64,000 bases of DNA. It comes from Rhodospirillaceae bacterium. Its GTDB lineage: Bacteria; Pseudomonadota; Alphaproteobacteria; GCA-2746255. The position numbers and the translations under genes are program-made. Positions 18,741 to 42,069 of this stretch are shown here, one piece after another. The notes below the pieces were generated by a model that had not been told where the DNA came from, ran no database searches, and worked only from the letters and a program-made list of their open reading frames with translations. The DNA lies in the NCBI GenBank assembly GCA_002746255.1, contig NVWO01000001.1:230102-294101 (forward strand), written 5' to 3'. Position 1 is the first letter of the stretch; every line of letters begins with the position of its first letter.

Positions 18741-19254
18741 CGACCGCCTCCTCGGCCCGCGAACCGATCGGTTGCCTGGCCCTATTGTTGATCCCGAAGA
18801 AGCGCGGTCCCGACCAGTGCCCGCCGGTGATTGCGCGCGCGATCGCCGACAGCGACTGCCAGTGTCGGCCCCTCCATTCAAACCCGTCCTCAGTAACGAT
18901 CACGGTATGAGTCTCACCATGCCACTCGCGTATCAGCTTCGCCCCGGGCTTTAGGCGGGCAACCCGGTTGCGCGTGACGTCGCCGTTCCGTTCCAGGGTC
19001 TTCGCCAGATCGGCGAGACGACGCTTCGTTGTCGCGCCGAGGCCACCAAAGGCCCGCTCCTGGATCTTCCATGCAATCCCGAGCAGGAGCAGGTCGCGTG
19101 CCACCCGCTTCGGCGGGTGGATGCGATAGAGCCGTCGCCATTCCACTCGTAGCGCGTCGTAATCCATCTCTCCGAGCGCTTGAAGTCTGGTCGCCACCTC
19201 CTCTACGGCACTCGCACTACGGCGTTGGAGGGCTTCTTTCCCGGTGCGCAACAT
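18733..19254 (-). CDS. DUF2924-like protein (accessory protein commonly next to serine recombinases)
   Basis: Carries the motif GAKLIREWHGETHTVIVTEDGFEWRGRHWQSLSAIARAITGGHWSGPRFFG. It overlaps the recombinase start. I preferred the start at MLRTGKEA. Confidence 0.6.
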   Translation of the reverse strand: MLRTGKEALQRRSASAVEEVATRLQALGEMDYDALRVEWRRLYRIHPPKRVARDLLLLGIAWKIQERAFGGLGATTKRRLADLAKTLERNGDVTRNRVARLKPGAKLIREWHGETHTVIVTEDGFEWRGRHWQSLSAIARAITGGHWSGPRFFGINNRARQPIGSRAEEAVDA

Positions 19255-19258
19255 CGAC

Positions 19259-19549
19259 TCATGCCTCGGCGGGTGCGATTTTGTAAACCTTTCGCTCATC
19301 CTTGTCGGCTTCAAGGCGGATGGTGAAGCCTCGCGTGCGGAGCCGGCTCAGGGCTCCGTATACGGAGTGCTTCTGCCAACCGGTTGCCTTAATGAGAGCG
19401 TCAATCGTTGCGCCCTTCCTGGTGTCAAGCCGGTCCAGGATTAGGCCGAGCTTTCCACCCGGGCGGGGGTTGGCATCGGTCCTCCGAGAGCGCTTGTCGG
19501 GGCTCTTCTTTGCGTAGCTGCGTGTTTTGCTTGGGGTCCGCTTGGTCAT
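19259..19549 (-). CDS. DUF3489-like small protein
   Basis: Only the C-terminal 96 aa of the 224-aa track ORF look genuine (MTKRTPSK...RKGATIDALIKATGWQKHSVYGALSRLR...KVYKI). Confidence 0.6.
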   Translation of the reverse strand: MTKRTPSKTRSYAKKSPDKRSRRTDANPRPGGKLGLILDRLDTRKGATIDALIKATGWQKHSVYGALSRLRTRGFTIRLEADKDERKVYKIAPAEA

Positions 19550-19644
19550 CGGTGGTCCTCCATCTCGGGCCGCGCCACTCGCGCGGCCTCCCACCAGCCC
19601 AAGCCCCGCCGGCAAGGCCGGCCAGGGCGGGCGGAGAGACGATG

Positions 19645-19898
19645 TCCACCCCTCAAGTTGACGGACAGTACCGCTTCCTTCTACGCAGGAGTCCAGACGA
19701 AAGAAGGCGGGAGGTAGGTCTTTCGGAGAACAGGGGGTATAATCGGTGCCAGGCATCGGGACACAGCCGGTCGGCTGGCTACCCATAAAGTCCCATGCTG
19801 GCTTCGGCGGGCCGACCCCGCCGGGGCTTTTTGAAATGGTATGCGAGCGTGCCGTGACGCGGCCGGGCAAGATCGGATGATCTCTGCGCATGCGGGGA
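19645..19898 (+). repeat. structured noncoding element, copy A (TATAAT box, GC hairpin with T-run, one CRISPR-I-E-repeat-like hairpin)
   Basis: It aligns by eye with 28390-28627. Shared parts are aggtaggtctttcggag, TATAAT (19738-19743), terminator-like CGGCGGG-ccgac-CCCGCCG-gggcttttt (19805-19832) and the hairpin cggatgatCTCTGCgcatGCGGGGa (19874-19898). Confidence 0.6.
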
Positions 19899-19922
19899 AA
19901 ACACGAAGGTAAAAGAGCTAAA

Positions 19923-20203
19923 GGCATTGACACGTTAAGTCGTTAGCTGGCTAGGGCAGGGGTCGGTTCGTCGACGCGAACAAAAACAACAGCACTTTCA
20001 AGTCGCCGGGATCGGCCCAACGGTTTCTGTCGATTCACGCTGCCGTCTACAACCTCTTCTACGTCCAACACCACCTTTTATCTCGACGTATATTCAAGGC
20101 ATTTCAAGCCGAGACTTTCACTGTCTGGAATCAAGGTTGGCTTGCAGCCTAATCCGGGTCACGATCCAATCGTGGCAACCGCGGAAGTTAACGTGTCAAT
20201 GCC
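19923..20203. mobile_element. IS6-family-like internally deleted element (MITE-like, both inverted repeats retained)
   Basis: Terminal inverted repeats ggcattgacacgttaa (19923) and ttaacgtgtcaatgcc (ends 20203). The interior keeps only a transposase C-terminal coding remnant (HAAVYNLFYVQHHLLSRRIFKAFQAETFTVW). Confidence 0.65.
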
Positions 20204-20413: not shown

Positions 20414-21688
20414 TTGCCTTCGTTTCGCTTTCTTCATACTGCAGACATTCATCTGGATAGCCCTTTGAAAGGGTTGTCTGGGCATGAGGGTAGTCTGACT
20501 GAGCGTATTCGCGGCGCGACCCGTGAGGCTTTTGACCAACTTGTTGGCCGCGCTATTGAGGAACAGGTCGATTTTTTAATCATCGCAGGCGACCTGTACG
20601 ATGGTGATTGGCGAGACTACAAAACAGGCCTGTTTTTCGTCAACCAAATGGGTCGCCTTAACAAAGCGGGAATTCCGGTGTTTCTGCTTTACGGCAATCA
20701 TGATGCAGAGAGTCAGAACACTCGCCGCCTCGTTTTGCCGGAAAATGTGAAAGTTTTCGGCAGCAGAAAACCTGAGACATTTAAGCTTGATGAGTTGAAC
20801 GTCGTCATCCATGGACAGAGCTTCCGACAGCGAGACATCAGCGAGAATCTCGCTCTGACTTATCCAGACCCGGGCGCGGGTGAATTCAATATTGGTGTTC
20901 TGCATACCGGTCTCGGTGGCATGGGCGGACATGAAAATTACGCCCCCTGCGACCTTAGTGATCTCGTGAACAAGGGTTACGATTATTGGGCGTTGGGTCA
21001 CGTGCATCAGGCTCAGGTGCTACATGAGCGACCGCACATTGTCTTCCCTGGCAACCTTCAGGGACGCCACGTTCGCGAGACCGGCAGCAAAGGAGCATGC
21101 CTGGTTTCGGTGGAAGATGGGGAGATCAATGATCTTACTACTCTCCACAGCGATGTGGTGCGATGGTCTGTGGTGCCGGTTGAACTGGAAGACGTCGCCA
21201 GTGTGGGCGAAGCTTTCGATCGGATCCGGGATGCGCTTGAAAATGCTGTGACCAATTTTGGCGAGGGACGCTTGTTGGTATGCCGGGTGCAGCTGCATGG
21301 TCACACAGAATTCCACGAACAGCTTTTGGCCACTGGGGATCATGTTCTCGCCGAGGCGCGCTCCAGTGCCTTGGGGCTGGGCGAAGACATAGCGTGGGTG
21401 GAGAAGGTCGTAATTGAGACGGAACCGTTGATCGATTTGCAAATCAGGGCTGATCGTGAAGACGCTATTGGCGATTTACAGCGTATGCTTCGAGAGGCCG
21501 GTGCTGATGCAAACCTTATAGAGCAACTCGACAGGGATATCGGCGAGATAGTTCGACGGTTGCCTCATGAAGTGCGCGCCGATGTTGAAGATGTTGCGCT
21601 AAGGGCGGCAATTGAGGGCGATCACGCCGGGCTGATCGCAGACGTTACGCCCTACCTATCAGCTCGTCTAACAATGAAGGAGGGCTGA
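20414..21688 (+). CDS. SbcD/Mre11-family metallophosphoesterase (YhaO-like DNA exonuclease subunit)
   Basis: The N-terminus FRFLHTADIHLDSP and the motifs IIAGDLYD, GNHD and GHVH match calcineurin-like nuclease motifs. TTG start preceded by an AGGGAAG Shine-Dalgarno-like sequence. Confidence 0.8.
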   Translation: MPSFRFLHTADIHLDSPLKGLSGHEGSLTERIRGATREAFDQLVGRAIEEQVDFLIIAGDLYDGDWRDYKTGLFFVNQMGRLNKAGIPVFLLYGNHDAESQNTRRLVLPENVKVFGSRKPETFKLDELNVVIHGQSFRQRDISENLALTYPDPGAGEFNIGVLHTGLGGMGGHENYAPCDLSDLVNKGYDYWALGHVHQAQVLHERPHIVFPGNLQGRHVRETGSKGACLVSVEDGEINDLTTLHSDVVRWSVVPVELEDVASVGEAFDRIRDALENAVTNFGEGRLLVCRVQLHGHTEFHEQLLATGDHVLAEARSSALGLGEDIAWVEKVVIETEPLIDLQIRADREDAIGDLQRMLREAGADANLIEQLDRDIGEIVRRLPHEVRADVEDVALRAAIEGDHAGLIADVTPYLSARLTMKEG

Positions 21689-21690
21689 GC

Positions 21691-24600
21691 GTGCGGCTGC
21701 GACGCCTTGATCTTCTTCGTTATGGGCACTTCACGAAAAAAGTTGTTGAGCTGCCTACCGATGAGACCGATTTTCATATTATTTTCGGCCCCAATGAAGC
21801 TGGCAAATCCACGGCACTCGCCGCGATTGAGGACTTGCTGTTCGGTATTCCGATGCACTCGCCCTATAATTTTTTGCATGATTATTCGGACATGCGCATT
21901 GGCGCTGTTCTTGAGAGTGAGAGGTCATCACTCGAGGTCTTCCGACGAAAAGGAACGAAATGTACCCTTCTAGGTCCAGACGACCTGCCATTAGCTGGTG
22001 GTGAGGGGGCGTTAAGATCATTTTTGGTTGACGCGGATCGATCTTTTTTTGAACGCATGTTTAGTCTCGATCACGTGCGTCTCGAAGAAGGTGGCCGTGA
22101 AATTTTGGAGGCGAATGACGAAATTGGCCAGATGCTCTTTTCCGCAGGAGCCGGCGTAGCGGGCCTGCGGGATCGACTCTTGGACTTGTCGAAGGAAGCT
22201 GACGATCTGTGGGGAGCGAGAAGAGCCTCGCGCCGGCTTTTTACCCAGGCAGAAGATAAGCTCAAGGAGGCCGACAAAGAACTGCGGGAGCACACATTCA
22301 CGGCGAACAAATGGCAGGGACTAAAGCGCGCTTACGAAACGGCTGATGAGGCCTACATTGAGGTTGAGGGGAATTTTGAGAAGGTATCCGCCGAAGGGAA
22401 ACGCCTTAGTCGCATTCGTAGGATATATCGCTACGTCCGCATAAAGACCGAACTGGATGGACAGCTCGACGCCCTTGGAGAGGTTGTCTTGCTTCCAGAG
22501 GAAGCCGGTCAGGTTCTCGAAAGCGCGGAGCGCAATGAAACGAAAGCTTCTGCAGCGATCGACACTCTCCTCGGTCAACTGGAGCAGGTAACTCAGGATC
22601 TGAAAGCTCTTACCTTTGACAAAATGCTTGTGCTGCGGGCGGATGATATGCGCGAGCTTCATGAGCGCCGAATCGAAATTCGTCGCGAAAAGGCTGATCT
22701 GCCAAAACGCCAATCCGAACTCGATGTTGCAGATTCCGAATTGCGAGCTTTGGCGAAAGAACTAGGCTGGTTGGAGGATGATGTCGATACGTTGATTTCC
22801 CGCATTCCGGCGCGGGCTAAGGTCGGTGTCGTACGTTCATTGCTTGAGCAACGCGGTGAGTTGGCTGCAAGCGTAACGAAAAGCACTCAAGCGTTGGATG
22901 AGGCTCAAGCCGATTTAATCAAACTCCGCGATCGCCTTGGCGAAATGGGTGAGGTGATCGACGTCTCCAGATTGGCGGCGGTCGTAAAGACGGTGCGTGA
23001 GAGCGGCGACATTGCCGGTCGAGTTGCGCTTGCGGAGCAACAGGCCACTGAGGCACAGGAGCGTGTTGATCGTTTGCTTGCTTCAATGAATCCGGTGCTT
23101 CCTAATGAAAATGACGCGGCAGAGATAAAAGTGCCGCCACGTGCGGGGGTTCAAAAGCACCGCGATAAGGTTCAGGATTGGGATCGGCACTTCCGAGAGG
23201 CGCACCAAAAGACTGAAGCAGTTGAGCGCGAAGCGGACCGCGCAGGAAAGGCTTTCGAGCGCACTGTTCGCAACGAACGCGCCTTTACTAGTAATGAACT
23301 GGAGGATGCGCGACGCCATCGCGACGTGCTCTGGAATTTGGTGAAGCTCAAGCACATCGAAAATGTCCCTATCTCAGATGAGGAACATGCGGCCTACGCC
23401 GATGAGCTTGAAAACTTACCTGCAGCCTTTGAACCTGCGATGCGATTGGTTGATGAAATCACTAACCAGCGATTTGATAATGCCGAGGCGGTCGGACGGT
23501 TGGTGGAAATGTCCCGCATTATTGACGAGCAGAAAGAACTGCTCGACCAGCAACTGAAACAGGAACTGGCGCTCACAAAAGAGGAAGAGCAGCTAAAGTC
23601 CGACTGGCAAGCCATGTGGAAAACCGCGCCGTTCGAACCCTTGGAGTCTGACGCCATGTTGGATTGGTTAGATGCACGCAGCGAACTACTGAAAGCGGTT
23701 GAACAGCGCGCTGACGTGAACGGCGGATTGAAAATCCAACGCAAGGAAGAGCATGAATCGAAAGAGAGGCTTTTGACGGAACTGGCAGCCCTTGATGTCG
23801 ATCGCGTCCCTCTGGAGGACGACATCCTTCGGGTAGTTTTGGAACGAGCAACTAACGTGCAGCGCGAGCAAGAAACTGCGGCCCAGGGCGAGGCTCAGTT
23901 GGAAGAAAGTGTGCAGGATGCGGAAGATGAGGCGGAGCGATGTGAGCGCGATCACGACCGTGCTGAAAAGGCATGGGCAGAGTGGCAGGGACAGTGGTCC
24001 ATGGCCCTGAGGGAACTTGGTTTAGCTGCCGATTTGCTTTCAGACGCGGTCGGCGCACAGATTGAAGTAATAGATCAAATGCGCGACTGGGCGGGTAAGG
24101 TCACTCAACTGCGTCATGATCGCATCGATAAAATAGTTCGGGACGTCGCCGATTTCGAGAGTGTGGTCGCTGAGATTGTCCAGCAAGTGGCTAAGGACTT
24201 ACTAGGTAAACCAGCAGATGAGGCCGTAGTCAAAATTGAAATGCGATTGGCAGAGGCTCAACGTGTTCAGGAGCTTCATAAAAGCAAGTCGGAAGAGGTG
24301 GACGGTCTCGAAAATCAGATTACGGCTATGAAAGAAAGCCGGCATGAGGCAATGGAGTCCTTGATCCCTTTCAAGGAAGCTGCAGGTGTGGATGACGCGA
24401 AGGCGCTCAAGGCGGCAATTGAAAGTTCTGATGCGCTGCGCCAACTGCAAGGCAAGGTGGCTGAAAACCTGCAAACAATGGAGCAAGAAGGAGATGGGCT
24501 GGCGGTTGATGAGTTGGAGAAGGAATGCGATGAAATCGACTTGGACCACGTCGCCGCGCGTGAAGAATCTATTGCCACTGAATTGGATGCATTGCGGCAG

Positions 24601-25212
24601 CAGCTGACCACTGCTGTTGAAGTCAGATCGCTGGCTAGAGAAGCGTTTCAGGCAATTAGGGGCGATGATTCTGCAGCACTAGCCGCCGCAACTCGGCAGG
24701 AAGCCATTGCAGAAATGCGAGAGGTGGCCACTCGTTATGTGCGCGTGCGAACTTCGGCGATATTGCTGCAATGGGCTATTGATCGCTATCGGCGAGAGAA
24801 GCAGGCACCTCTCCTCAAACGTGCTGGAGAACTTTTCGTAACGATAACGAGAGGGTCGTTCAGTGATTTACGTGTCGCCTACGACGATCAGGATCAGGCA
24901 CATTTAACTGGACTGAGGGCCGATGGAGAGGTTGTACGAGTGCCGGGTATGAGCACCGGAACTGCGGATCAGCTATATCTGGCACTTCGTCTGGCGTCGA
25001 TCGGAGATTATCTGGAACGCGCCGATGCATTACCTTTCGTTGCCGATGATCTATTTATCAACTTCGACGACGATCGTTCCGCTGCGGGTTTTGAGGTGCT
25101 CGGCAAACTAGCGCAGAAGACGCAGGTGCTGTTCTTCACCCACCACCAGCATTTAGTGGATATTGCTCGCAGCACCTTGGGAACGTCTGTCCATGTGGTG
25201 ACGTTGGCATAG
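21691..25212 (+). CDS. SbcC/Rad50-like (YhaN-type) ABC ATPase with a very long coiled-coil insert
   Basis: Walker A GPNEAGKST at the N-terminus. Signature-like MSTGTADQLYLALRLA, Walker B PFVADDLFINFDD and FTHH at the C-terminus. About 900 aa of charged helical sequence lie between them, with no CxxC hook. GTG start 3 nt after the sbcD-like stop. Confidence 0.8.
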   Translation: MRLRRLDLLRYGHFTKKVVELPTDETDFHIIFGPNEAGKSTALAAIEDLLFGIPMHSPYNFLHDYSDMRIGAVLESERSSLEVFRRKGTKCTLLGPDDLPLAGGEGALRSFLVDADRSFFERMFSLDHVRLEEGGREILEANDEIGQMLFSAGAGVAGLRDRLLDLSKEADDLWGARRASRRLFTQAEDKLKEADKELREHTFTANKWQGLKRAYETADEAYIEVEGNFEKVSAEGKRLSRIRRIYRYVRIKTELDGQLDALGEVVLLPEEAGQVLESAERNETKASAAIDTLLGQLEQVTQDLKALTFDKMLVLRADDMRELHERRIEIRREKADLPKRQSELDVADSELRALAKELGWLEDDVDTLISRIPARAKVGVVRSLLEQRGELAASVTKSTQALDEAQADLIKLRDRLGEMGEVIDVSRLAAVVKTVRESGDIAGRVALAEQQATEAQERVDRLLASMNPVLPNENDAAEIKVPPRAGVQKHRDKVQDWDRHFREAHQKTEAVEREADRAGKAFERTVRNERAFTSNELEDARRHRDVLWNLVKLKHIENVPISDEEHAAYADELENLPAAFEPAMRLVDEITNQRFDNAEAVGRLVEMSRIIDEQKELLDQQLKQELALTKEEEQLKSDWQAMWKTAPFEPLESDAMLDWLDARSELLKAVEQRADVNGGLKIQRKEEHESKERLLTELAALDVDRVPLEDDILRVVLERATNVQREQETAAQGEAQLEESVQDAEDEAERCERDHDRAEKAWAEWQGQWSMALRELGLAADLLSDAVGAQIEVIDQMRDWAGKVTQLRHDRIDKIVRDVADFESVVAEIVQQVAKDLLGKPADEAVVKIEMRLAEAQRVQELHKSKSEEVDGLENQITAMKESRHEAMESLIPFKEAAGVDDAKALKAAIESSDALRQLQGKVAENLQTMEQEGDGLAVDELEKECDEIDLDHVAAREESIATELDALRQQLTTAVEVRSLAREAFQAIRGDDSAALAAATRQEAIAEMREVATRYVRVRTSAILLQWAIDRYRREKQAPLLKRAGELFVTITRGSFSDLRVAYDDQDQAHLTGLRADGEVVRVPGMSTGTADQLYLALRLASIGDYLERADALPFVADDLFINFDDDRSAAGFEVLGKLAQKTQVLFFTHHQHLVDIARSTLGTSVHVVTLA

Positions 25213-25301: not shown

Positions 25302-27602
25302 TTAGGTTTCTAGTCCCGAAAGCTGTCCAGGTGCGAACTTCTTAACTACTAAAATGGCTTCCTTCGATGCCAAAAGAATATCTTCTTCTATGTGGGGCGC
25401 ATCGCTAAATTTTCCTCCATGGCAGAGGTCTTGTATGAGGACACTTTTTATTTCGATCTCATGTTCGTCATTGAGAAACTTCACGAATTCCCCAAAATTA
25501 TTTTTATCAGGACAACAGAACTTCCACATACCCTCAATTACGGAGCGAATTGAATTCGCAGTAGTGTGATTTGGTTCCACCGCTTTCTCGCTGACGTCAT
25601 AGACGTCTTTCAGTTGAAGCATGTGGGGAGTTGCAAAGGCTTTTTGGCTTCGCAGAAAATGCTCAGCCGAGCCAGAGACCAACTGATATAGGGCACCCGC
25701 TTTCACTATATTGTTGGTCGAAGCGACGTTATAAAAGTGATTGTTGTGCGTGAGAATTAGCATCTTCGGCTTGTGAGGATTACTCTTTAGGTTGAATTCT
25801 ATCTCTCCATCGTCCCCTATCCGAAGTAGCTTGAGGCACGTGATGATCGTGTACACGTAGTCGAAAGACATTGACGTGACAGGATCGTCAAATACGAAAT
25901 AGATTTTCTTGTAATCGTCGTTAGACTCCACGCGTAGATGGGTCTGCGCGATGAAATAGCAAAACGCCATTGCTGATTTTTCACCATCGCTCAGAGTACG
26001 ATCGCCGCCGCGAAGCATTTCTTTGTTGTTGCGACGGACCTTGAAGTTAGACTTATCGAAGGAGTATTTATCCTGAAAGAAGCGGCGCAGAAGCATCGAA
26101 AAAGTATCGGCTACACGCTCTCTTGCCGAGGCTTTTTCACCGTAGTTATTCGTTAAGGCTGTCAGATTCATCTGGAGTTTGGGTATTTCGGCAGATAATT
26201 TGCGGAGTGCTTCTATTTCCACCGAATTGTCTGTCGCGAATTTTTGTGTGAGCGCTTCGCATGCCGAAGATTGAAGAGATCGCCGTTCTTCGCCGGAATT
26301 GCTTGCTAGGGATGCCAGTTTGGCAAAATGTTTGTTGTTTTCTTCGCAGCGATTTTTGACTGACGTCGCGATCGCAAGATAGTCAGCATTGGGCATATTC
26401 AATGGCCGGTCGAGCTGATCAGTCTTGTCTTGCAGCGTCTTATTAAGGGCGACGAGAAAGGCGCCCAGGCTGTCCAAACTGTCATCAACATCAACCAGTT
26501 GTACGTTACTCATTGTAGAAAAATATGCTTTCAGAGAATCGAAACGAGCGTTGCTCTTGAGAATTGCTTCTCTCTCGTTTGCGATCAACTTCTGTTGCTC
26601 TTGAACATGTTTCAACTGCCCGTCAATACGCTTCCTATGCTGGGCCTCTTCGTCTTCAAAGTACGCCTTATAGGCGTCGATAGCGGTTGCAGCTAAAGCT
26701 CCAATTTCTTGAGTGCAGAACGGACAGTTGTTTTGATCGGCGTTAAGCATCTTTAGCCCTGACTCGAAAAAGGCTTCATCAGATACGATTTTAGTCTTGA
26801 AGGTATCTGCGACAGTGGAGAGGTTGGTTATGTTTGCCAACTCCCCGTTAATCGTTTCGGAGTTGACCGAGAAATCAAAATTTACGGCGACCGGTAAATC
26901 GGGGTCTGATGGCAAAGATTTGAATTTGTTGTATTGGGTGAGAAGGACTTCGACTGACTCAGCACTTCCATCAGCGGTATAGGGCGAGTCCAGAAAATAG
27001 CAGCCCGCATTGAGAGCCTTATAAGTTCCCAAAGAACCCGTAATATTGAAATCCTGTTTTAGTTTCAGTTGCGCTGCTTTGAATGAGGTGAAAATTTCCT
27101 CCTTGCCTCTCGAAAGAGTAGATTGCTTGTCCTCTATCTTTTTCTGGAGGACATCAAGATCGGCATTTTCCTTTCCGATGATGATTTCATGAGTAATTTT
27201 GCCATCAAGCTCCTCCAACTTGTTGCGCAATTCTTCGTCAATGTAATCTTCTGAGAAAACGTGAAAAATATACGCGGGTGTTGAGCGCGTGACAGTGCTT
27301 GTACTCTTGAATAGTTCCATGCCTCCAATCTTAGTTGTGTCTTCAAACAGATTGAAAATTCCGGTTCCCGAAACGGACTCTTCTGAAACCAGAAGATTTG
27401 GCACCTCACTGTCTTTAACCTTGGTGTTTGCCGCACCATCAAGGTGCCTCAGGGCCCTTGCAAGGAAGGATTTCCCAAACCCATTGCGCGCGAAGATGAG
27501 GTTTTGTTTTTCAGACGAAAGAAACTGATCAAGCTTCATGATCGGCCCAATATGCTGGGCTACAATCCTCAAACGGGGCTTTGATTGCGGAGGGGTGTTC
27601 AT
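25302..27602 (-). CDS. RloC-like ABC ATPase with zinc-hook coiled coil (AAA_13 / PrrC-RloC family), candidate anticodon nuclease
   Basis: Walker A ARNGFGKS, coiled-coil insert with CPFC, signature LSDGEKS and Walker B IYFVFDDPVTSMS. The C-terminal region carries R-x3-E (SIRSVIEG) followed by His residues. The gene is visibly AT-rich. Confidence 0.65.
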   Translation of the reverse strand: MNTPPQSKPRLRIVAQHIGPIMKLDQFLSSEKQNLIFARNGFGKSFLARALRHLDGAANTKVKDSEVPNLLVSEESVSGTGIFNLFEDTTKIGGMELFKSTSTVTRSTPAYIFHVFSEDYIDEELRNKLEELDGKITHEIIIGKENADLDVLQKKIEDKQSTLSRGKEEIFTSFKAAQLKLKQDFNITGSLGTYKALNAGCYFLDSPYTADGSAESVEVLLTQYNKFKSLPSDPDLPVAVNFDFSVNSETINGELANITNLSTVADTFKTKIVSDEAFFESGLKMLNADQNNCPFCTQEIGALAATAIDAYKAYFEDEEAQHRKRIDGQLKHVQEQQKLIANEREAILKSNARFDSLKAYFSTMSNVQLVDVDDSLDSLGAFLVALNKTLQDKTDQLDRPLNMPNADYLAIATSVKNRCEENNKHFAKLASLASNSGEERRSLQSSACEALTQKFATDNSVEIEALRKLSAEIPKLQMNLTALTNNYGEKASARERVADTFSMLLRRFFQDKYSFDKSNFKVRRNNKEMLRGGDRTLSDGEKSAMAFCYFIAQTHLRVESNDDYKKIYFVFDDPVTSMSFDYVYTIITCLKLLRIGDDGEIEFNLKSNPHKPKMLILTHNNHFYNVASTNNIVKAGALYQLVSGSAEHFLRSQKAFATPHMLQLKDVYDVSEKAVEPNHTTANSIRSVIEGMWKFCCPDKNNFGEFVKFLNDEHEIEIKSVLIQDLCHGGKFSDAPHIEEDILLASKEAILVVKKFAPGQLSGLET

Positions 27603-28627: not shown

Positions 28628-29762
28628 TCAATAAGGCCAATTTACGTTCTTAAACCGTTGCAAAAGTTTCGTCGCGTAGTCAGGCTCAATCATCTTTGCG
28701 AAATCAATCAGTCCGCGCAGGTGGGCTTTCATACCCCATATCGTATCAAACTCCCGAGCCTTCGCATGTTCAGTCGGACCGAATTTTTCCAGATAGTGAA
28801 TATGAAGGCGGAGATTGTCTTTGAACTCCCTTCGCAGACTTGGCTTAGGGCCACCCACATTCAGGCCAAGTACGATTTTTCTGCTCCCCGGAGGGATCAG
28901 TTTTGTCTTTCTATGCTGGGTCCGAAAGCCCGCCGATGACAAAATTTCCTCAATGGTATGAATAAAGGACGATGCAGTGGACCGACCGAAATTCTTCTCC
29001 GGTGTCGAGAAGGTCAGGTCATCGCTATAGCGCGTATACGTCAGTCCTGCTTCTCTGGCAGCATCGGAAATCCGCGTATCAATTGGCGTCATGATGAGAT
29101 TTGAGAGCATGGGGCTCGTAGGAGCCCCTTGAGGCAAATAACCCAGTACACCCGTCGAATAGGCAGGAATTTTCTCATTTCTGCGCCTGACCTTCCAAAC
29201 CGGATCACTATGGCGCGGGCTTCGATCCACTGGACCGATCGTTACTATCCGAGCAAGTTCGAATGACACCAGCGGTTGGTAACCCAGTGCTCTGAAAACA
29301 CGAAACACCTGGATCTCCGATATTGATTCGAAGAAGCTGGTGACATCCATTTTAATGAGTCATTGCGCCCCGCAATGCCTGCTCGCACATGAAAAAATGG
29401 ATCCGCCGGGTGCAAACGCAAAGCTGCAACTGTGAACGGGAACATATCTGGAGGATATACTTATTAAGCCATTTCTGAACGTGGCTCAAAGAAGGCGATG
29501 GCACATGAATGAAACGCCTTCCGCCTGACCGTTTTCGGATCGAAAATTTCCGGTATGTATCGATCTTGGAACGCTGAACGACGCTGCGCAGAAATTGGTA
29601 GGGCACCTTTGCGCGGGTAGCCAAGTGGTTGAGCGAGAGAATGGCTGGTAACTTCGGTTCACCCGACTCGACGGCTTCGATCTGCTCAATAGCGGTTGCA
29701 ATCGTGTCGTCGCCTAAGCCCTTCTTCTTCGCCTCTGCCCTATATTGATGAGGGGACCACAC
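28628..29762 (-). pseudogene. retron-type reverse transcriptase, disrupted by one frameshift and one in-frame TGA
   Basis: RT motifs are split over three frames. The first piece reads RKFSIRKRSGGRRFIHVPSP...HVQKWLNKYILQ. A frameshift near 29445 leads to YVPVHSCSFAFAPGGSIFSCASRHCGAQ, which ends at TGA 29360-29362. The last piece reads LIKMDVTSFFESI...LPQGAPTSPMLSNL...YTRYSDDLTFS...VLGLNV. From memory it aligns colinearly with the Ec86 RT. Confidence 0.75.
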
Positions 29763-29942: not shown

Positions 29943-30212
29943 CTAGCCACGTGCGGCCCTCCTCAACTGTTGGGGAAAGTAATATTCGTCGCCCCTTGCA
30001 AGGACGCCCCCGTAAACTTTCCCCTGATCTTTCGCGGCTGCAAGCTCGGTACGTCCGAGAACTGTCAAACGAATCGATTGTGTTAAAAACCCCCACTTAA
30101 TGCATCGATTGATGATCTCAGTACAGCTTTCGCGGTTCAGCCCTGTTGCAAAGCTCAGGGCGCTTTGTTTTCTCTGTCCCTTGGCAATGAGGGCGAGAAT
30201 AAGAAGGATCAC
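29943..30212 (-). CDS. small winged-helix-like DNA-binding protein
   Basis: 89-aa ORF with an HTH-like pattern (LSFATGLNRESCTEIINRCIKWGFL). It sits between the PRTase-like gene and the RT. Confidence 0.5.
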   Translation of the reverse strand: MILLILALIAKGQRKQSALSFATGLNRESCTEIINRCIKWGFLTQSIRLTVLGRTELAAAKDQGKVYGGVLARGDEYYFPQQLRRAARG

Positions 30213-30235: not shown

Positions 30236-31182
30236 TCAGCTTGCTGCTCTTTGCCAGCTTCTTCTGTCCGACATCAAGAAGCGTAACAAGTGAGTCACCA
30301 CGTGCGATCTCAGGGGGAAAACTGATTGCTCACCCGCCAATATCGCGCGATTTTGAAACAACGGTTCCCACCGCTTTTTTCCTTTGATGGGTGCCCATAG
30401 GATCGCTGGTGCATTGTTTGGACAACCATGCTCAAACACCAAGGCAACCGATTCATGTCCATAGCCATCCCAGAAGTGGCTCCTGCTGGTACGCCGTCCA
30501 TACCGCTTGCAAACATTAAGCACGGAATTCCTCAGCGCCTGTCCCCAGGGCATATTCCTGAAGGTCGGGCAACTGCGCTCGACGATGACCTCGGGCTTCG
30601 CCTTGTGTTTGCTTACGTGTTTCATTCCCCGCTCGGTGGCGGAGAAAGAAACAACGATGATCTTTAAGTACTTGAGCGAAAGCCAAGAAACAAATGTCGG
30701 GTCGTTCCAGAAAGATTCAATAAATTCATATGTTCGTTTTCCAGAACCAATAAAATCATCGACGAAAACAATGGCTCGACACTTCTTATTCCGCAGCTCC
30801 TGCAGGCTGGGGTGATTTAGCAGTTTATTTGAATCTGTTTTGGAGTAGTTCCGGATTATAGCTGCTATCCGCGCCTCGCTTCCGTGATCGCTGCCATGAA
30901 CGAGCGCGTCGATATTTCCGGTCGTAGTGTTCGTATACTGTTCAAAATACGAGTTCTGTTTATCGACCTCGCGAACAGCATAAAAGGCAATTGGCAGATC
31001 GTTCTCGGAAGCCGTCTTCTCCAATGACGACTGTATGGCACGTTCGAATTCCGAATGGGAAACAAGCGTAAGGCTTGCATCAATCTTCTCAGCTATGTCT
31101 TTATCGCTTGAACCAAACTGGACCAGCCAGCTCTTGCCAAGCTCTGTGTATAGCAGCGCTCGGGCTATTCGTTTTTCCGAAC

Positions 31183-31195
<13 letters not shown>
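30236..31195 (-). CDS. phosphoribosyltransferase-like (PRTase-fold) protein
   Basis: Has a PRPP-loop-like motif, [15 protein letters not shown]. Its start overlaps the hsdR stop, either at GTG 31195 or as a GTGA overlap at 31186. Confidence 0.55.
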
Positions 31196-34323
<3,128 letters not shown>

Positions 34324-34331
34324 AATGCCCC

Positions 34332-35093
34332 CTATGCTGCCAATTTCTCGCGGATTTCTTCGCGGCGGCTCCAGAGAACGGGCATAATCTGATAATTCTT
34401 CAGCGCATCGGTAACGGTACTCGATATTGCACGCTCGTTATCATTCAGGAACGCATAAGAAACGGAGTTCTCAGGCCTGACTTCACGTGTATCGAGGCAG
34501 GCCATAATCAGGTTCTGTGCCGTGTTCCTGTTGGGATTGTTGATCGCACGGATTATCCGTTCCGGCTCAATCCGGGATTTAGGGATCACAAAATCGAACA
34601 TGTGATCGAATCCGGTTTTCCCGGTGAATTTCACGCTCGGTGTAAACCGGATTTCAGAAAGATCGAGCCAGGCCGCCACGTCCTCGAAGAAAAGCGCCTC
34701 TACCGTAGGCGACGCCAGGTAAAACATGTCGTGGACGGATAGAATGCCCTGAATCAGATTATGCTTACGAAGCGCAAAGTTGTCCGCACTTGTATGAACG
34801 CACAGTTGGTGATCGCTCTCCTCAATGCCGAACCCATTGAGCACCGACTTGAGGATTGCCTGCCGCTTCGGGCTTTCGAGGGAAAAGCCCGAATGAGAAA
34901 GGTCTAAGAGTGTTTCGCCTCCATCTGTAAGGAGATAGCCGCCTTCGTGCTTTCGCGCGTAGATTTGAATGTAATCGTTATGGCGGTCCAGATATGGGGT
35001 CGTAATCTCGGCCCAGTTGTTAATGTGACGGATAGCCGTCTTGTCCCGAAGCCAGCGCCAATACCCTTCGACCAGTTTCTCTATCTCGTTCAT
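34332..35093 (-). CDS. DUF1828/DUF1829-like protein nested in the hsd operon
   Basis: 253-aa ORF. The family assignment is from memory of proteins often found in type I R-M loci. It overlaps the upstream ORF as ATGA and ends 8 nt before the hsdR start. Confidence 0.5.
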
Positions 35094-35536
35094 GTGAAGA
35101 GCCCTGGTTCAAAGTGAGGTGGCCGGGTGACATTGCAGTAGCGCAGGAAATCCTGAAGCGATTGGAAAGGATCAGCGATGGAAGGGAATTGATCCGTCGG
35201 GATCGGATATGCCCAACGGTCGTTGTAACCTTCCTGGTAAAGATGGATGTGCGGACAACCAATCTCCTCATCGTCCGGGTTGCGATGAGGAGCGCCACCA
35301 AAATCAAGCCGAGCGAGAATGATTGTTGTTCGGGCACGATTCTGAAACGTCCCTTTGTTCAAGTTGATCCGGCTGCGAGTTATATCAAGGTGGAAACTCT
35401 CAGATTCATCATGCGAGACGAGCGGAACGACTATCCCACCGCCAAGGTCAGGAAGTCGCCGACGTTCCTCATCAACTCGATGCTTTTCGAGCGCCAAAAG
35501 AGCATCCGCGTCAGCCTGTGTCAGCCACATACTCAT
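35090..35536 (-). CDS. hypothetical protein (148 aa) nested in the hsd operon
   Basis: Non-biased sequence with the core [41 protein letters not shown] cannot name a family with confidence. Confidence 0.55.
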
Positions 35537-35555
35537 GTCACCGCCTCCGCAACTT

Positions 35556-36125
35556 TCACGACATTGCGGAGGCGGAGTTTGCCCGCGCTTGGTCGATTTT
35601 GTCCTTTTTCTTCCTTAAATATTGGCTAGGGTTCCAGCCACCGGGGTTTTGGGCAGGGATATTGTATACGTTTCGAAGTCTTTGCGCCAAATCCGAGGCC
35701 GCTAAGCCAAGGCGGGCATATTGATGCTGGCGTTCTTCAAAGACTTCTTCATAGTCAGGTGGAAAAGCTACCTCAGAGCAAACAAATGCAATCGAACGGT
35801 TTGCAGCTTCAGCTTCGCCTGGGAGCGTCAAGAGCACGTACATCAGTTCGCAATCAATGCTTTTCCAGTCAACATCGTCAGGATATATCAGAGGCGCTGG
35901 TAGCGAAATTTGAGGATGAAGGCAGCCTTCCTGATCTTGCTGGCCGCCATCATCTTGGACAACCTCGACACATTCATTGACATACCTATCGAGAATGCAA
36001 GCAATACGCACGGAGAGGTACCTGGCGTGCCGCGCCCGCATCCTCATGTCTGACCACGCGTCTTTTATCAAAGTGAGTAAGGCTCCGATAAAAACCCCTA
36101 AAAGACCAAAAACAGCTTCGCTCAT
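35556..36125 (-). CDS. hypothetical protein with one N-terminal TM helix (189 aa) nested in the hsd operon
   Basis: The N-terminus AVFGLLGVFIGALLTLI is hydrophobic. The start overlaps the hsdS stop as ATGA. Confidence 0.5.
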   Translation of the reverse strand: MSEAVFGLLGVFIGALLTLIKDAWSDMRMRARHARYLSVRIACILDRYVNECVEVVQDDGGQQDQEGCLHPQISLPAPLIYPDDVDWKSIDCELMYVLLTLPGEAEAANRSIAFVCSEVAFPPDYEEVFEERQHQYARLGLAASDLAQRLRNVYNIPAQNPGGWNPSQYLRKKKDKIDQARANSASAMS

Positions 36126-37415
36126 GCCACGGCCTCCACAGCGTCTTCAGCCTCTCGGAGGCGGATTTTGCCGGACATGAGCTTTGGCAAAAGCAGGTCG
36201 CGGGTCTGGACGAGGGTGCGGCTCTCGTGAATGTTTGCGATGATCCGGTCGATCATCGGTTGCACGGTGTTCTGGAAGGCGCAGATAACAAGCTCCGGCG
36301 GTAGGCAAAGCCCATACTGGCCCATAGCCTTCCAACTCGTGCGCGGCATTTTCGTGCCCGTTGAGGCTTGGTTGGTGTAAGCAATGAATTCATCGGTTGA
36401 GATACACGCCAGCACAAAGACGGACCAGTCAGCCGTCCTGGGTGTGAGAACAACAATGTCGGTGGAACAAATACCACTTAAGGGGGCGACCCCGACCTTG
36501 TGGAAGTAAGGCCTCAGCTTGCCAAACAGAAATTCGCCCCTCTTGAAAACTGACTTGTTGCTCGTGACTTTGCCTGCACCCTCCCATTCCGTTAGAGCGA
36601 TTGAGCGGCGGGGCATGTGTTCAAGGCCGATGTAAGGTGTTTCCTCGGAAACATCGGTAGGGCTGATTCCTCGCCTTGGAGATTCCGCAACGTCGGCTAG
36701 GCATCCAAGCTCCCACCCCACCGGCTTGTCGTCATCGTCGAGGGCGTCGGGAAACAGGCCCCAGATATCCGGAGCAAGGTAGGGTTCGCGGCCTTCGGCC
36801 TTGGCGCGGGTGGGGCCGAAATCGACGAACCAGTCCTTGAAGATCGCCCGCGCCATCGCCTCCAGCGTCTCATTCATCCGCCGGTTCAGCTCGATCTTAT
36901 CGTCGAGGGACCCCAGAGTTTCTGCGATGTTGTGCTGCTCGGAAATCGAAGGAAGAGGAATATGAATTCTATGTATGTCACGAATAGGAAGTTGAGGTTG
37001 AGCACTTCCTGTGGTCAGGGCAGAGACTTGGTTCCTAAAGAGGCGCGACCTCAAAAATAAGTACAAGTAACGCGGAACGATTGTTGGTTGATCTGGCCGA
37101 AAAATTACCATTCCAGAGTTGATACGCACATGATCAAAAGGGATGGAATCATCATAGAAAGCTACATTTCCCACTGTACCTCGCGTTGTCAAAACACTGT
37201 CGTATCGCTTGAGCTTTCCTTTTCTTAAGAGGTTGTCGCGTTCTTCGCTAATGAACGAACATTCGGAGAACTTAAAGCCAGTAGAACTCACGTTTCCAGC
37301 ATTCAAAAACAAGCAATGGCCGCTCGGAGCAAATTCCGCCTGCTTTGGGTAGTTTACCCCCCTGTCGCCATCGATGATTTCAATAGGCGCTTCTAAGAAC
37401 GTCGGTTGTGCCCAC

Positions 37416-37423
<8 letters not shown>
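36122..37423 (-). CDS. hsdS: type I restriction-modification S subunit
   Basis: 433-aa ORF with two target-recognition halves separated by conserved helical spacers ([16 protein letters not shown] and [12 protein letters not shown]). It overlaps hsdM by 8 nt. Confidence 0.85.
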
Positions 37424-39008
<1,585 letters not shown>

Positions 39009-39199: not shown

Positions 39200-40147
39200 T
39201 CAGCTTGGTGAGGGACGTGCACCCTTCGCAAAGTTTTTACGGAAGATACGATCCATCTCCCATTCCTCCTCGGGAGTGATATGCAACGGTCTGGGTCTCG
39301 TCGCCTGTAGCTGCGCAAACTCGGCGGCAATACGCTGCTCGCGTTTTCGTCGGGGCATGAATTGATACTCTATAAAGAGATGGAACTCAGCATTATCCAG
39401 CCAGCGATAGCGGCGAGCTAGGGATTGATTGAGGAGCTGTGCGAGGACCATATAAGTGCAGATGGCGTCATCTTTTAATTTGGCAGAGGCTTTCTCTGGG
39501 CGTTCAGAATCATGCGCGGAGCGCAGCAGGACGTGGTCGCGTAATTGCACAATATGCTTGTGAAAGTGCACCTCTTCCGGAGTCTCAGGCCCACTGACAT
39601 AGGCCTCGCAAGTTACCGGATTGAGAACGATGTCCTCGGGGTGCGGCAGGAGGTCGGGAGGAGGGAGGCCCCTGCGCCGATGTCCGGCAAGCTTCTGCTC
39701 GCCCGTGCGTTTGAGAGCCTCCATCCGGGTATAGCGCGCAACTTTGTATTCAAGGTTTCGTTCCTCTTCACGTGCAACATGTTCCAGAAAATATTTCTGG
39801 GATAGTCGGTTTCCCTTGATCGCGCCCATGACAAGAGCCCGCAGGACCGCCTGTGTGGCGGGCAGCTTGATGCCCTTTCCGTTCTCACGCAGCGCAACAG
39901 AACGATAGGCCTCCTCTTCCAGGAACTTGTCGGAAAGGGCGTCGGACAGTCGTGGCGGTCGTGGTTTTGGTTTCCGCGGCCGACCGCGGGGATTGCCTGA
40001 CTGGCCTTTGACGAAGCGCGTGTGTTTGGGCGGCTTACCATAGCCGACTTCGTGTTCGGCGTCCTGCAGCCGGTCCGTGGATTCCGGATTGCTGGTCTTG
40101 ATGCGAGGCGCTCCCTTCCCAGGACGGCGATCGGAATTTCTGCTCAT
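39200..40147 (-). CDS. DUF5681-like protein
   Basis: Carries the motif GYGKPPKHTRFVKGQSGNPRGRP. I chose the start at MSRNSDRR (40147), which overlaps the methyltransferase stop as ATGA. Confidence 0.5.
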   Translation of the reverse strand: MSRNSDRRPGKGAPRIKTSNPESTDRLQDAEHEVGYGKPPKHTRFVKGQSGNPRGRPRKPKPRPPRLSDALSDKFLEEEAYRSVALRENGKGIKLPATQAVLRALVMGAIKGNRLSQKYFLEHVAREEERNLEYKVARYTRMEALKRTGEQKLAGHRRRGLPPPDLLPHPEDIVLNPVTCEAYVSGPETPEEVHFHKHIVQLRDHVLLRSAHDSERPEKASAKLKDDAICTYMVLAQLLNQSLARRYRWLDNAEFHLFIEYQFMPRRKREQRIAAEFAQLQATRPRPLHITPEEEWEMDRIFRKNFAKGARPSPS

Positions 40148-41460
40148 GCCACATGCTCCGTCTCCACCCAATCGCGTGTCCGTCGTTCTTCGACATCCTC
40201 GAAGCGCTCTCCCGTCGCAACGAGCGTTGCCTGCTTGCCGGTGAAAATCTCCCAACGCCGCACAATGGTGTCGCAATAGGCCGGGTCGTATTCCAGGAGC
40301 CGCGCATAACGGCCGGATTTTTCGGCGGCGATCAGCGTCGTGCCAGAGCCCCCGAAACAGTCGAGGACGACATCGCCACGTTTCGAGCAGTCCCGGATGG
40401 CGTCGGCCACGAGCGCGACCGGTTTGACCGTCGGATGCATCGCCAGCTCTGCATCCCGGTTCGCACCCATACTGCTGATGCCGGCGTAATCCCAGACATT
40501 GGTGCGATAGCGCCCGGTTTCGCCAAGACCGAAGGTATTGACGTGAGGCGCATCGCCAATCTTGAATACGAAAACCAACTCATGCTTTGAGCGATAAAAG
40601 GTCCCCATGCCGCCATTGGTCTTGTTCCAGACGCAAAGGTTTTTGAGTTCGGCGAAGACCTGTTTCCCCGCCGCCAGCAGCTCGCCCATGTGGCGCCAAT
40701 CCATGCACACAAATGCGATTGCGCCGTCCCGGCAGGTCTTGGCCGCCGCCCCGAGCGTCTCCGTCAGGAAAGCAGTGAATGCCTCCTCGGACATCTCACC
40801 GGCACCCATCGCAAACTCGCGGTGGCGTACGCGACCAAGACCGCACACATGGCCGTCAATGGGTACGTTATAGGGAGGATCGGTGAAGATAACACCGACC
40901 GTCTCGCCGTCCAGGAGCGCGTCATAATCGGCAACAATGCGTGCGTCGCCGCAAAGCACCCGATGGTGGCCGCATTGCCAGACATCGCCGCGCCGACTGA
41001 TCGCCGTTTCCGGAAACGGTGGCACCGAATCCGTCGGCCCATCCGGACCGGCTACGTCGCGTTCGCCGGCAGCGTCGAGCACCAAATCCACTTCAGCAAG
41101 CGAAAACCCGGTCAACTCCGCATCGAAGTCGAGGTCAATCAGAGTCTGCAACTCAATCGCGAGCAAATCCTGATCCCAGCCAGCATTCAGTGCCAGTTTA
41201 TTGTCGGCGATCACATAGGCTCGGCGCTCAGCGGCTGTTAGATGTGAGAGGCGGACCGTCGGAACATGGGTCATTCCAAGGCGTTTTGCCGCCATAACCC
41301 GGCCATGGCCAGCGACGATGGTATCGTCTTCGGCAACAAGCACCGGGTTGGTGAAGCCGAATCGCGTAATGCTGTTCATGAGTTGTCGGATCTGGCGCTT
41401 GGTGTGCGTCCGTGCGTTGCCGGTATAAGGGTGGAGCGCCGAGATTGATCGTTCCTCCAT
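40144..41460 (-). CDS. ParB-like nuclease domain fused to a DNA methyltransferase (N6A/N4C type)
   Basis: ParB/Srx-like N-domain (NPVLV..DDTIVAGHGRVMAAKRLG) followed by a methyltransferase core with DPPYN and a C-terminal AdoMet region (VLDCFGGSGTT). I preferred the start at MEERSISALHPY; alternative upstream starts run to 41652. Confidence 0.8.
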   Translation of the reverse strand: MEERSISALHPYTGNARTHTKRQIRQLMNSITRFGFTNPVLVAEDDTIVAGHGRVMAAKRLGMTHVPTVRLSHLTAAERRAYVIADNKLALNAGWDQDLLAIELQTLIDLDFDAELTGFSLAEVDLVLDAAGERDVAGPDGPTDSVPPFPETAISRRGDVWQCGHHRVLCGDARIVADYDALLDGETVGVIFTDPPYNVPIDGHVCGLGRVRHREFAMGAGEMSEEAFTAFLTETLGAAAKTCRDGAIAFVCMDWRHMGELLAAGKQVFAELKNLCVWNKTNGGMGTFYRSKHELVFVFKIGDAPHVNTFGLGETGRYRTNVWDYAGISSMGANRDAELAMHPTVKPVALVADAIRDCSKRGDVVLDCFGGSGTTLIAAEKSGRYARLLEYDPAYCDTIVRRWEIFTGKQATLVATGERFEDVEERRTRDWVETEHVA

Positions 41461-42069
41461 GATTTGGATGGATCGTATCCGGTTCTTTTCGTGCACTGGT
41501 TTGTCATTCATTCTGACATACCTTTCGGAAACAGATGTTGCTATAATGTTCTTTTTCGGTTTGAATCGAATCTGCCTCTCTGGCATGGTTTTAAACAATA
41601 GAATTTTTCTTGTATATAAATAGCAGTAAAGCATACATATGCGCATGTCCATATAAAAGATCGATATATGGAGCTATTTTCTGAAAAAGGCATAGTTCTA
41701 GTTAAGTAGTTAGACGATATTACTTCAAGCCATCCCACAAAAACAAGATTTCATCCCACTTCATGGAAAAATATCCCGTTTGCGTCTGGGGATAAGGCTG
41801 GATTTATTGACGTCGTATTTGACGGTCGGGATCGAAAAAACGGCGTAACCGCGCTCCTGACGGGATGTGGAGCGTCGACTTCGCGCTGGGGCCAGATGGG
41901 AGAGGCGGCCAGAAAGTGGCGGAACTTAAGGGTTCTTTCGGTTCACATCCCGATCGCCCAGGATTGGATCGGCCTGGCTGATCTGTCTTCCCGTCGTTGT
42001 TTTGCAGGTTCCTTCGTCCGGTAGGACCATTCCTTGATCCGCCGCTCGAAGGTCCCTGTTTTGTGGCGT

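Follow-up and report, generated by a model that had tools for sequence, protein, structure and literature searches.

What do the genes do that lie between the specificity gene and the restriction gene of a type I restriction-modification (RM) operon, and do they belong together? This question is raised by a stretch of 64,000 nucleotides (the window) from Rhodospirillaceae bacterium, a member of the Alphaproteobacteria (contig NVWO01000001.1, positions 230,102 to 294,101), in which three open reading frames (ORFs), orf189, orf148, and orf253, separate hsdS from hsdR. An earlier note on this DNA had proposed that the three form a single effector module guarded by the RM system, as PrrC is guarded by EcoprrI. 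We find that orf148 and orf253 are an obligate gene pair and that orf189 is a separate cassette. The best explanation overall, which we consider probable, is that the interval holds two independent cargo cassettes in the slot between hsdS and hsdR. A modular and autonomous architecture of these cassettes seems very likely, and a role for them in defence seems somewhat more probable than not.

Three catalogued families in an intact type I operon

Three ORFs of 189, 148, and 253 amino acyl residues between hsdS and hsdR, as described in the earlier note, are borne out by the coordinates (numbering of the window). orf189 (35556..36125, minus strand) matches the PADLOC model PDC-S67 (PDLC05063) with residues 1-186 on model positions 1-189 of 203 (1.6e-68) and has no match in Pfam. 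orf148 (35090..35536, minus strand) matches Pfam DUF6978 (4.6e-46) and, with residues 3-146 on model positions 1-144 of 146, the PADLOC model PDC-M24A (PDLC04538; 1.5e-57). orf253 (34332..35093, minus strand) matches Pfam DUF1828 (4.9e-27) and DUF1829 (3.5e-31), and its residues 1-253 align with positions 1-255 of 255 of PDC-M24B (PDLC04539; 1.6e-102). NCBIfam holds no match for any of the three. By these profile matches, all three ORFs belong to already catalogued candidate-defence families. PDC-M24 and PDC-S67 are among 145 untested “guilt-by-embedding” candidates (Payne, Hughes, Fineran, and Jackson, bioRxiv 2024, 10.1101/2024.01.29.577857), and the supplement of that work lists PDC-M24 as cassette CAS_00098 with the remark “Assign as candidate PDC-M24.” Full-length matches to the same hidden Markov models, same-strand embedding in a type I operon, and the gene order of M24 agree with the catalogue. 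In contrast to the catalogued cases, both candidates are here co-embedded in one operon, and membership tells nothing of mechanism.

All six genes of the operon lie on the minus strand in the order hsdM-hsdS-orf189-orf148-orf253-hsdR. The methyltransferase subunit HsdM (530 residues; 37416..39008) matches Pfam N6_Mtase (2.5e-104) and HsdM_N (7.4e-24) as well as PADLOC MTase_I (3.7e-216). The specificity subunit HsdS (433 residues; 36122..37423, minus strand) matches Pfam Methylase_S and, over residues 25-432, PADLOC Specificity_I (2.1e-91). The restriction subunit HsdR (1046 residues; 31183..34323, minus strand) matches Pfam HSDR_N, SWI2_SNF2, T1R_D3-like, and T1RH-like_C (3e-128), TIGR00348 (1.3e-184), and PADLOC REase_I. 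According to these Pfam, PADLOC, and NCBIfam profile searches, HsdM, HsdS, and HsdR are all present, full length, co-oriented, and complete in their expected domains, and the host operon is an intact type I RM system.

The three ORFs had been described as nested but are arranged in tandem. The hsdS stop and the orf189 start share an ATGA overlap, as do the orf148 stop and the orf253 start. A gap of 19 nt separates the orf189 stop from the orf148 start, which is preceded by GGAGG, and 8 nt separate the orf253 stop from the hsdR start. Scans for internal promoters and terminators in the operon gave hits at chance level and none that stood out. The GC content at third codon positions (GC3) is 0.50-0.62 in the cargo genes and 0.61 in hsdS, whereas hsdM and hsdR have 0.73-0.78. 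The same contrast is repeated in a related locus (L001, 7100-14361), where hsdM and hsdR reach 0.87-0.88, and hsdS and the cargo are lower. The low GC3 of both hsdS and cargo points to a joint turnover of these genes, apart from the enzyme core.

Two cassettes that travel separately

With the DUF6978 alignment (A1), 80 M24 loci were fetched from contigs of one genome per species; they represent the nearest relatives among at least 518 species that possess one. Those species belong to Alpha-, Beta-, and Gammaproteobacteria, Acidobacteriota, Nitrospirota, Planctomycetota, Chloroflexota, Cyanobacteria, and others. In 79 loci, M24A is directly followed by M24B on the same strand, and in the remaining one the contig ends, so that the adjacency holds in every testable locus (79/79). 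Of these loci, 68 show a distance from M24A to M24B of -1 nt, 10 a distance of -4 nt, and a single one +3 nt. Pairwise distances were calculated for the proteins of 26 embedded loci (the window and 25 others), and those of M24A and M24B are correlated with a Spearman rho of 0.79. The pairing persists at about 30% identity, as an M24A-like ORF is found upstream of M24B in six of eight plasmid or prophage loci; M24B occurs alone at L094 and L096. M24A and M24B are an obligate, translationally coupled, and co-evolving gene pair.

Public annotation misses or truncates the M24A-like gene located 5' of the DUF1828 gene at three of these loci (L091, 6558-7004; L093, 2530-2979; L095, 2531-2980). It is annotated with 78 residues at L093 and L095, and only tiny ORFs are given at L091; each of the three contains a full-length M24A-like ORF of about 148-149 residues that matches the DUF6978 profile (6e-60 to 6e-17).

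S67 is encoded in none of the 80 M24 loci, and M24 in none of 75 S67 loci (67 metagenome loci and eight contexts with gene calls). Both families were seen together only in the window and in none of the 155 other loci. Taken together with the strict adjacency of M24A and M24B, this means that orf148 and orf253 are the obligate pair and orf189 a separate cassette. A single three-gene module, as envisaged in the earlier note, is therefore not found. That note had suggested a co-occurrence check and had named independence of the families as the outcome that would speak against its proposal; independence is largely what was observed. Its more general view of a candidate effector module inside an RM operon stands insofar as the genes are embedded cargo and all match PADLOC candidate-defence models, but not insofar as it made them one unit of three genes.

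How closely is M24 tied to the RM system? In 38 of the 80 loci, hsdM/hsdS are encoded upstream and hsdR downstream on the same strand. Another seven fit this layout but are interrupted by a contig end, four have hsdS/M upstream and no hsdR downstream, one shows another arrangement, and 18 are untestable due to short flanks. Twelve loci are devoid of type I genes over at least 6 kb to either side, as far as tblastn with one Hsd lineage can tell, which divergent RM genes can escape. Among the 55 testable loci, 38 (69%) are therefore embedded and 12 (22%) are free. The statement in the earlier note that DUF1828/DUF1829 proteins recur in type I loci agrees with both the profile matches of orf253 and this frequency. 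The cargo genes are often embedded with one HsdR family, T1RH-like_C. Neighbours of free M24 copies include an ABC-transporter ATPase (4-bp overlap), two flanking phosphoglucomutase genes, HflX, a transporter of the major facilitator superfamily, and other defence genes. M24 is also encoded on the IncP plasmid pRSB223 and on an Acetobacter plasmid and, at about 30% identity, beside the integrase in prophage lysogeny modules of Lactobacillus, Latilactobacillus, and Staphylococcus; in the lysogeny module of Lj965, it adjoins sie and the integrase.

Even where it is embedded, M24 does not seem to follow its host enzyme. Among the 26 embedded loci, the distances of HsdM and HsdR are correlated with a Spearman rho of 0.87, whereas those of M24 and Hsd proteins reach only 0.25-0.31 (0.30 for M24B and HsdR). 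Some pairs of loci are openly discordant: L003 and L006 differ by 0.19 in M24B and by 0.52 in HsdR, and the window and L025 by 0.42 in M24B and by 0.20 in HsdR. The weak correlation, the discordant pairs, and the GC3 contrast indicate that M24 has been exchanged among type I lineages. Many embedded loci carry up to 7.6 kb of other DNA in the same slot, which marks the space between hsdS and hsdR as a multi-cargo hotspot, and many loci of the same RM lineage hold other or extra cargo there. M24 prefers the RM system as a host but can do without it. In the same type I lineage, further genes are located in the gaps between hsdS and M24A (up to about 9 kb) and between M24B and hsdR (up to 7.6 kb) at L022, L027, L036, L037, L043, L053, and others.

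The S67 family behaves in a similar way. Among 31 testable metagenome loci, five are embedded in type I operons and one has hsdS/M upstream only, eight are located immediately behind the gene for an MmeI-type enzyme and are followed by that for a DEAD helicase, and 17 are without a detectable RM partner. The contexts with gene calls include the vicinity of Gabija-like genes, a mobile element, and a region that consists of housekeeping genes only. At several loci, S67 directly follows hsdS or the gene for the MmeI-type enzyme with 4-bp overlaps. S67 may be a regular component, or a regular cargo, of an MmeI plus helicase system. A recurrent set of MmeI-type enzyme, PDC-S67 (4-bp overlap), DEAD-box helicase, and T5orf172 protein is present in 12 of the 67 metagenome S67 loci; this set occurs at L085, L088, L104, L105, L108, L121, L123, L129, L131, L140-L143, and L147.

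The arrival of orf189 can be followed to the base. In the four M24 loci closest to the window (L001-L004; 67-83% identity in M24 and 72-81% in HsdR), the hsdS stop overlaps the M24A start directly, and compared with them the window shows a clean insertion carrying orf189 at this junction. The 3' end of hsdS exists twice. The left copy is the native end of the gene (GGCAAAATCCGCCTCCG...GGAGGCCGTGGCATGAG; 36121..36172, minus strand), and the right copy (GGCAAACTCCGCCTCCG...GGAGGCGGTGACATGAG; 35532..35583, minus strand) spans the orf189 stop as well as the Shine-Dalgarno (SD) sequence and start of orf148. A local alignment of the two copies of about 50 bp scores 40, whereas 500 shuffles averaged 13.6 and did not exceed 29. 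The last residues of orf189 are read from this hsdS remnant in another frame, and this accounts for the 10-20 residues by which orf189 falls short of its homologues. No duplication of the hsdS 3' end surrounds S67 at L086 and L087, two other S67 loci embedded in type I operons; the duplication therefore marks this particular insertion event, which probably is recent.

The two halves of the hsdS remnant form a hairpin with a perfect 12-bp stem (CCGCCTCCGCAA / TTGCGGAGGCGG; 35541..35575, minus strand; RNA fold), which spans the orf189 stop and is predicted to bury the GGAGG of orf148. Its predicted stability is -28.6 kcal/mol (z = -3.4), and none of 200 shuffles was as stable. If the SD sequence is masked in this way, translation of orf148 could hinge on ribosomes that complete orf189. 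L001 has a different and non-significant structure at this place, L002 no comparable stem, and the hsdS/orf189 junction only a weak one; the hairpin as a conserved coupling element is not supported by L001 and L002.

Predicted properties of the proteins and possible functions

For orf189, a single N-terminal transmembrane helix had been noticed earlier, and residues 2-20 are indeed its only hydrophobic segment, with a Kyte-Doolittle maximum of 2.07 in a 19-residue window and no other region above 1.6. The helix is kept across the S67 family and followed by an Arg-rich stretch (alignment A5), which by the positive-inside rule places the conserved domain of about 140 residues, with its motifs VVxDDG, YPDDVDWKSI, and AFPPDYEE, in the cytoplasm. 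From its sequence, orf189 thus appears to be a single-pass membrane protein with a conserved domain that is predicted to be cytoplasmic.

M24A is a small, beta-rich protein. Its AlphaFold2 model (pLDDT 89, pTM 0.86) consists of seven strands and a C-terminal helix. Foldseek finds no significant match to it in the PDB (best E = 0.02, TM-score <0.3); the matches that resemble PH domains were treated as noise at such TM-scores and not as a fold assignment. In BFVD there is one match, an uncharacterised Siphoviridae protein. The block of orf148 that the earlier note had picked out as a conserved-looking core is the best-conserved block of DUF6978 (alignment A1). Among relatives of 20-54% identity (alignment A6), the polar residues R76, N86, H96, H98, and Y100 are invariant, and R67, H84, P87, and D88 nearly so. 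In the model, H96, H98, and Y100 alternate along one strand, which makes a pocket or an active site likely. Two readings of the HIHLYQE motif were ruled out. A HIT-like one (HxHxH) fails as the third His is a Tyr, a cupin-like one (HxHxxxE) as E102 is not conserved, and neither has a fold match. Clustered at 50% identity, the family amounts to about 1,360 groups, which consist almost entirely of single-domain proteins of 145-155 residues, and a search of 1.84 billion representatives revealed no informative domain fusions; one “fusion” of DUF6978 with DUF1828 and an “8xMP” one appear to be read-through or truncation artefacts.

For M24B, it seems plausible from the structural model that the C-terminal DUF1829 domain (pLDDT about 88) adopts a PD-(D/E)XK-like fold. 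The predicted order of secondary structure elements fits the alpha-beta-beta-beta-alpha-beta core of restriction endonucleases, and the best Foldseek matches are PD-(D/E)XK nucleases, i.e., Card1, VC1899, Can2, Cdn1, MspJI, NucS, Bax1, and McrC. Among these, Card1, Can2, and VC1899 (PDB 6xl1, 7bdv, 1xmx) match best, with probabilities of 0.99-1.0, and might share with M24B an architecture in which a regulatory domain at the N-terminus precedes a PD-(D/E)XK domain at the C-terminus. They differ from M24B in that the E-values are marginal at TM-scores of 0.31-0.38, no CARF domain was detected in M24B, its context includes no CRISPR type III system or cyclase, and the D...ExK signature is not conserved. 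Sequence profiles revealed no relation of the M24B domain to PD-(D/E)XK families. Invariant residues of M24B are mostly acidic (D40, D57, D122, D167, and D218), and E137, D138, and N217 are nearly invariant (29-63% identity; alignments A2 and A7).

Sequence and profile searches of the PDB with the three proteins and with alignments A1 and A2 gave nothing, a Pfam scan at relaxed thresholds with M24A, S67, and each M24B domain by itself revealed no remote family, and matches in PHROGs were limited to families of unknown function. The only functional literature found on these domains concerns DUF1829 in HipAD/DS-6, a validated defence system whose component DS-6B carries DUF3037 and DUF1829 (DefensePredictor, Science 2026, PMC13092281). 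DS-6B is the non-kinase partner in this system and has been hypothesised to be antitoxin-like, with predicted binding to its partner and to DNA (PMC13092281). M24 has DUF1829 and the two-protein make-up in common with HipAD/DS-6, but the N-terminus of M24B is DUF1828 and not DUF3037, its partner is DUF6978 and not a HipA kinase, and M24 is not a member of HipAD.

How might such cassettes work? In the explanation that we prefer, both would be autonomous second-line systems against phages or mobile elements, and neither subunits nor obligate wards of HsdMSR. A comparable case is BrxU/GmrSD in the BREX system of pEFER, also an autonomous defence gene that provides complementary protection within a larger defence operon, although it has no relation to the present proteins and resides in a host system of another type. 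The orf189 cassette would be the latest insertion, placed exactly at the former overlap of hsdS and M24A and leaving the duplicated hsdS 3' end of about 50 bp. Embedding would offer the benefit of co-expression, through 4-bp overlaps and SD masking, and of co-transfer with hsdMSR. M24A and M24B would act as a two-protein complex, in which the PD-(D/E)XK-like domain of M24B might bind or cut nucleic acid and a pocket of M24A formed by R67, R76, H84-x-N-P-D, and H96-x-H98-x-Y100 might either sense a trigger or contribute catalysis or ligand binding. Upon infection, this complex would be released or activated in the style of abortive infection or of a toxin-antitoxin (TA) system, and S67, anchored in the membrane, would serve as an effector or sensor. 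How in particular the tasks are divided between M24A and M24B is a tentative proposal, and we would not be surprised to see it revised.

Several points weigh against this explanation. Neither structure nor sequence connects M24A with a relative of known function. The model of M24B is good only in its C-terminal domain and poor in the N-terminal half, and the Foldseek matches, in spite of probabilities of up to 1.0, have E-values of 1.5e-3 or weaker and TM-scores <0.4, i.e., they are marginal. Nor does the M24B family show the canonical D...(D/E)xK signature, since, apart from the invariant D167 (with E137/D138 and N217/D218), D163, K172, and E178 vary and no lysine is kept; a non-canonical site is conceivable. 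With no conserved lysine, marginal matches, and a poor N-terminal model, M24B may be no nuclease at all. As the 80 M24 loci are the nearest of at least 518, the 69% embedding may not hold for the whole family, and the count of free copies includes any whose RM genes escaped the tblastn search. Copies amid housekeeping genes (L007, L020, L068, and L084) fit a selfish addiction module or a role outside defence as well. No public RNA-seq run that holds the locus was found from which co-transcription could be judged, and a literature search found no experimental test of PDC-M24 or PDC-S67.

The toxin-antitoxin theme can also be read in reverse, with M24A as the toxin and M24B as a dead nuclease fold that has become a DNA-binding antitoxin or autoregulator, as proposed for DS-6B. 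The main effect of such a pair would be the stable maintenance of the mobile elements and RM loci in which it resides, and defence by abortive infection would be optional. We regard this addiction module as an unlikely reading. The cassette is a compact one of two genes that overlap by 1-4 nt in 78 of 79 loci, its locations include plasmids, lysogeny modules of prophages, and genomic islands, a catalytic lysine is not conserved in M24B, and M24A has the more enzyme-like cluster of invariant residues. Furthermore, M24B stands alone at two loci, as antitoxin-like regulators can, and its relative by domain, DS-6B, is hypothesised to be antitoxin-like and DNA-binding (PMC13092281). However, despite the overlap of their genes neither orf148 nor orf253 matches a toxin or antitoxin family in Pfam, NCBIfam, or PADLOC, and the acidic residues of M24B (D40, D57, D122, E137/D138, D167, and D218) resemble an active or metal-binding site and not a decayed one. 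In most type II TA systems, the antitoxin gene comes first, whereas here the putative toxin gene would precede it. It is very improbable that the genes encode factors that assist or regulate the type I enzyme, for instance in restriction alleviation, assembly, or localisation, and not a defence system of their own. This would account for genes inside the operon, on the same strand and translationally coupled to hsdS and hsdR, and for the frequent company of T1RH-like_C enzymes, but not for the same genes in prophage lysogeny modules, on an IncP plasmid, or amid housekeeping genes without Hsd genes, nor for S67 after MmeI-type enzymes or standing alone, nor for the other or extra cargo in the same slot of many loci of this RM lineage.

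The guard model of the earlier note is at first sight supported by position. PrrC, an ABC ATPase fused to a nuclease (anticodon nuclease), is encoded in EcoprrI (prrA-D) in the same slot and orientation (hsdM-hsdS-X-hsdR) as the cargo of the window, also translationally coupled, so that a backup role is conceivable. One or both cassettes would then be latent toxins held inactive by HsdMSR and freed when a phage anti-restriction protein disables the enzyme. The frequent embedding of M24 (38/55), with repeated entry into different type I lineages, suggests positional selection, S67 too directly follows hsdS or MmeI-type enzymes with 4-bp overlaps, and a backup logic for embedded systems has been discussed (Payne et al., 2024, 10.1101/2024.01.29.577857). 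Yet PrrC is described as almost exclusively embedded (10.1101/2024.01.29.577857), whereas the cargo of the window is not obligately linked to RM. RM-free copies amount to 12 of 55 for M24, besides those on plasmids and in prophages, and to 17 of 31 for S67. Co-divergence of M24 with HsdR and HsdM is weak (rho 0.25-0.31; 0.30 for M24B and HsdR), the three ORFs have no homology to PrrC and none matches the PrrC model of PADLOC, and a gene pair plus a membrane protein differs in make-up from the fused PrrC. A PrrC-like guard thus has rather little probability, and as one RM-guarded module of three genes the proposal does not agree with these data. In a variant of somewhat lower probability still, M24 would be a new two-component immune system that monitors the integrity of the RM complex, a guard that arose convergently to PrrC and for this reason was repeatedly recruited to the space between hsdS and hsdR of unrelated type I enzymes, and S67 a second guard acting at the membrane; part of the same improbable package are a DUF6978 without solved fold relative and an invariant pocket of Arg, His, Asn, Asp, and Tyr with new sensing or catalytic chemistry. 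The reading as two autonomous cassettes is the one we retain.

The surrounding island and the meaning of the locus

The operon is part of a serine-recombinase island packed with defence genes, which starts beside a tRNA-Ser gene (16614-16703). Its order is a large serine recombinase, DUF2924, and DUF3489; a pair of Metallophos and AAA_27 genes; PDC-S06; a retron set; the RM operon; and DUF5681 with a ParB-methylase. The GC content drops from 0.59 to 0.45-0.57 across the island. Direct repeats of the att type (at least 14 bp) flanking the island near tRNA-Ser were not found. The two ends of the island (16614-19933 with recombinase, DUF2924, and DUF3489; 39200-41652 with DUF5681 and the ParB-N6_N4 methylase) have a counterpart at another PDC-S67 copy, L088 (1052-3742), where the same backbone of DUF2924, DUF3489, ParB-methylase, and DUF5681 is present. 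This common backbone points to a family of integrative elements whose defence cargo varies.

Within the island, the only match to the PrrC model in the window lies outside the RM operon, in a PrrC-like ABC ATPase of 766 residues (25302..27602, minus strand; PDC-S06 5.3e-136; PrrC model 2.5e-13 over residues 476-730). Directly downstream of hsdR, a set resembling a type III-A retron comprises PRTase-CE (PADLOC PRTase_III-A 2.7e-91), a winged helix-turn-helix protein, and a reverse transcriptase (28628-29350 and 29352-29762, minus strand, with 29943-30212 and 30236-31195). An overlap of 13 nt exists between the start of the PRTase gene and the end of hsdR. Two ORFs, which cover model positions 4-106 and 138-371, encode the reverse transcriptase, which thus is interrupted by a stop codon or a frameshift. 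On the plus strand, a Metallophos (calcineurin-like phosphoesterase) gene (20414-21688) is followed by a gene for an AAA_27/SMC-like ATPase of 1173 residues (21691-25212). The two are SbcCD-like, PADLOC matches to LmuB are weak (4e-5), and they may be another defence pair of the island.

New in this analysis are the independence of S67 and M24, the exchange of M24 among RM lineages, the extension of M24 to prophages of Firmicutes, and the base-level scar of an insertion. Further work on the three genes should therefore not treat them as a single module, and their link to RM is a preference and not a dependence. The locus is a textbook case of the stacking of defence genes in a defence operon, and it shows at base level how a cassette is slotted into a translationally coupled junction. 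M24 is widespread, and neither of its proteins has a functional assignment; should a defensive role be demonstrated, M24 would be a common addition to the known systems, and its biochemistry would probably be new.

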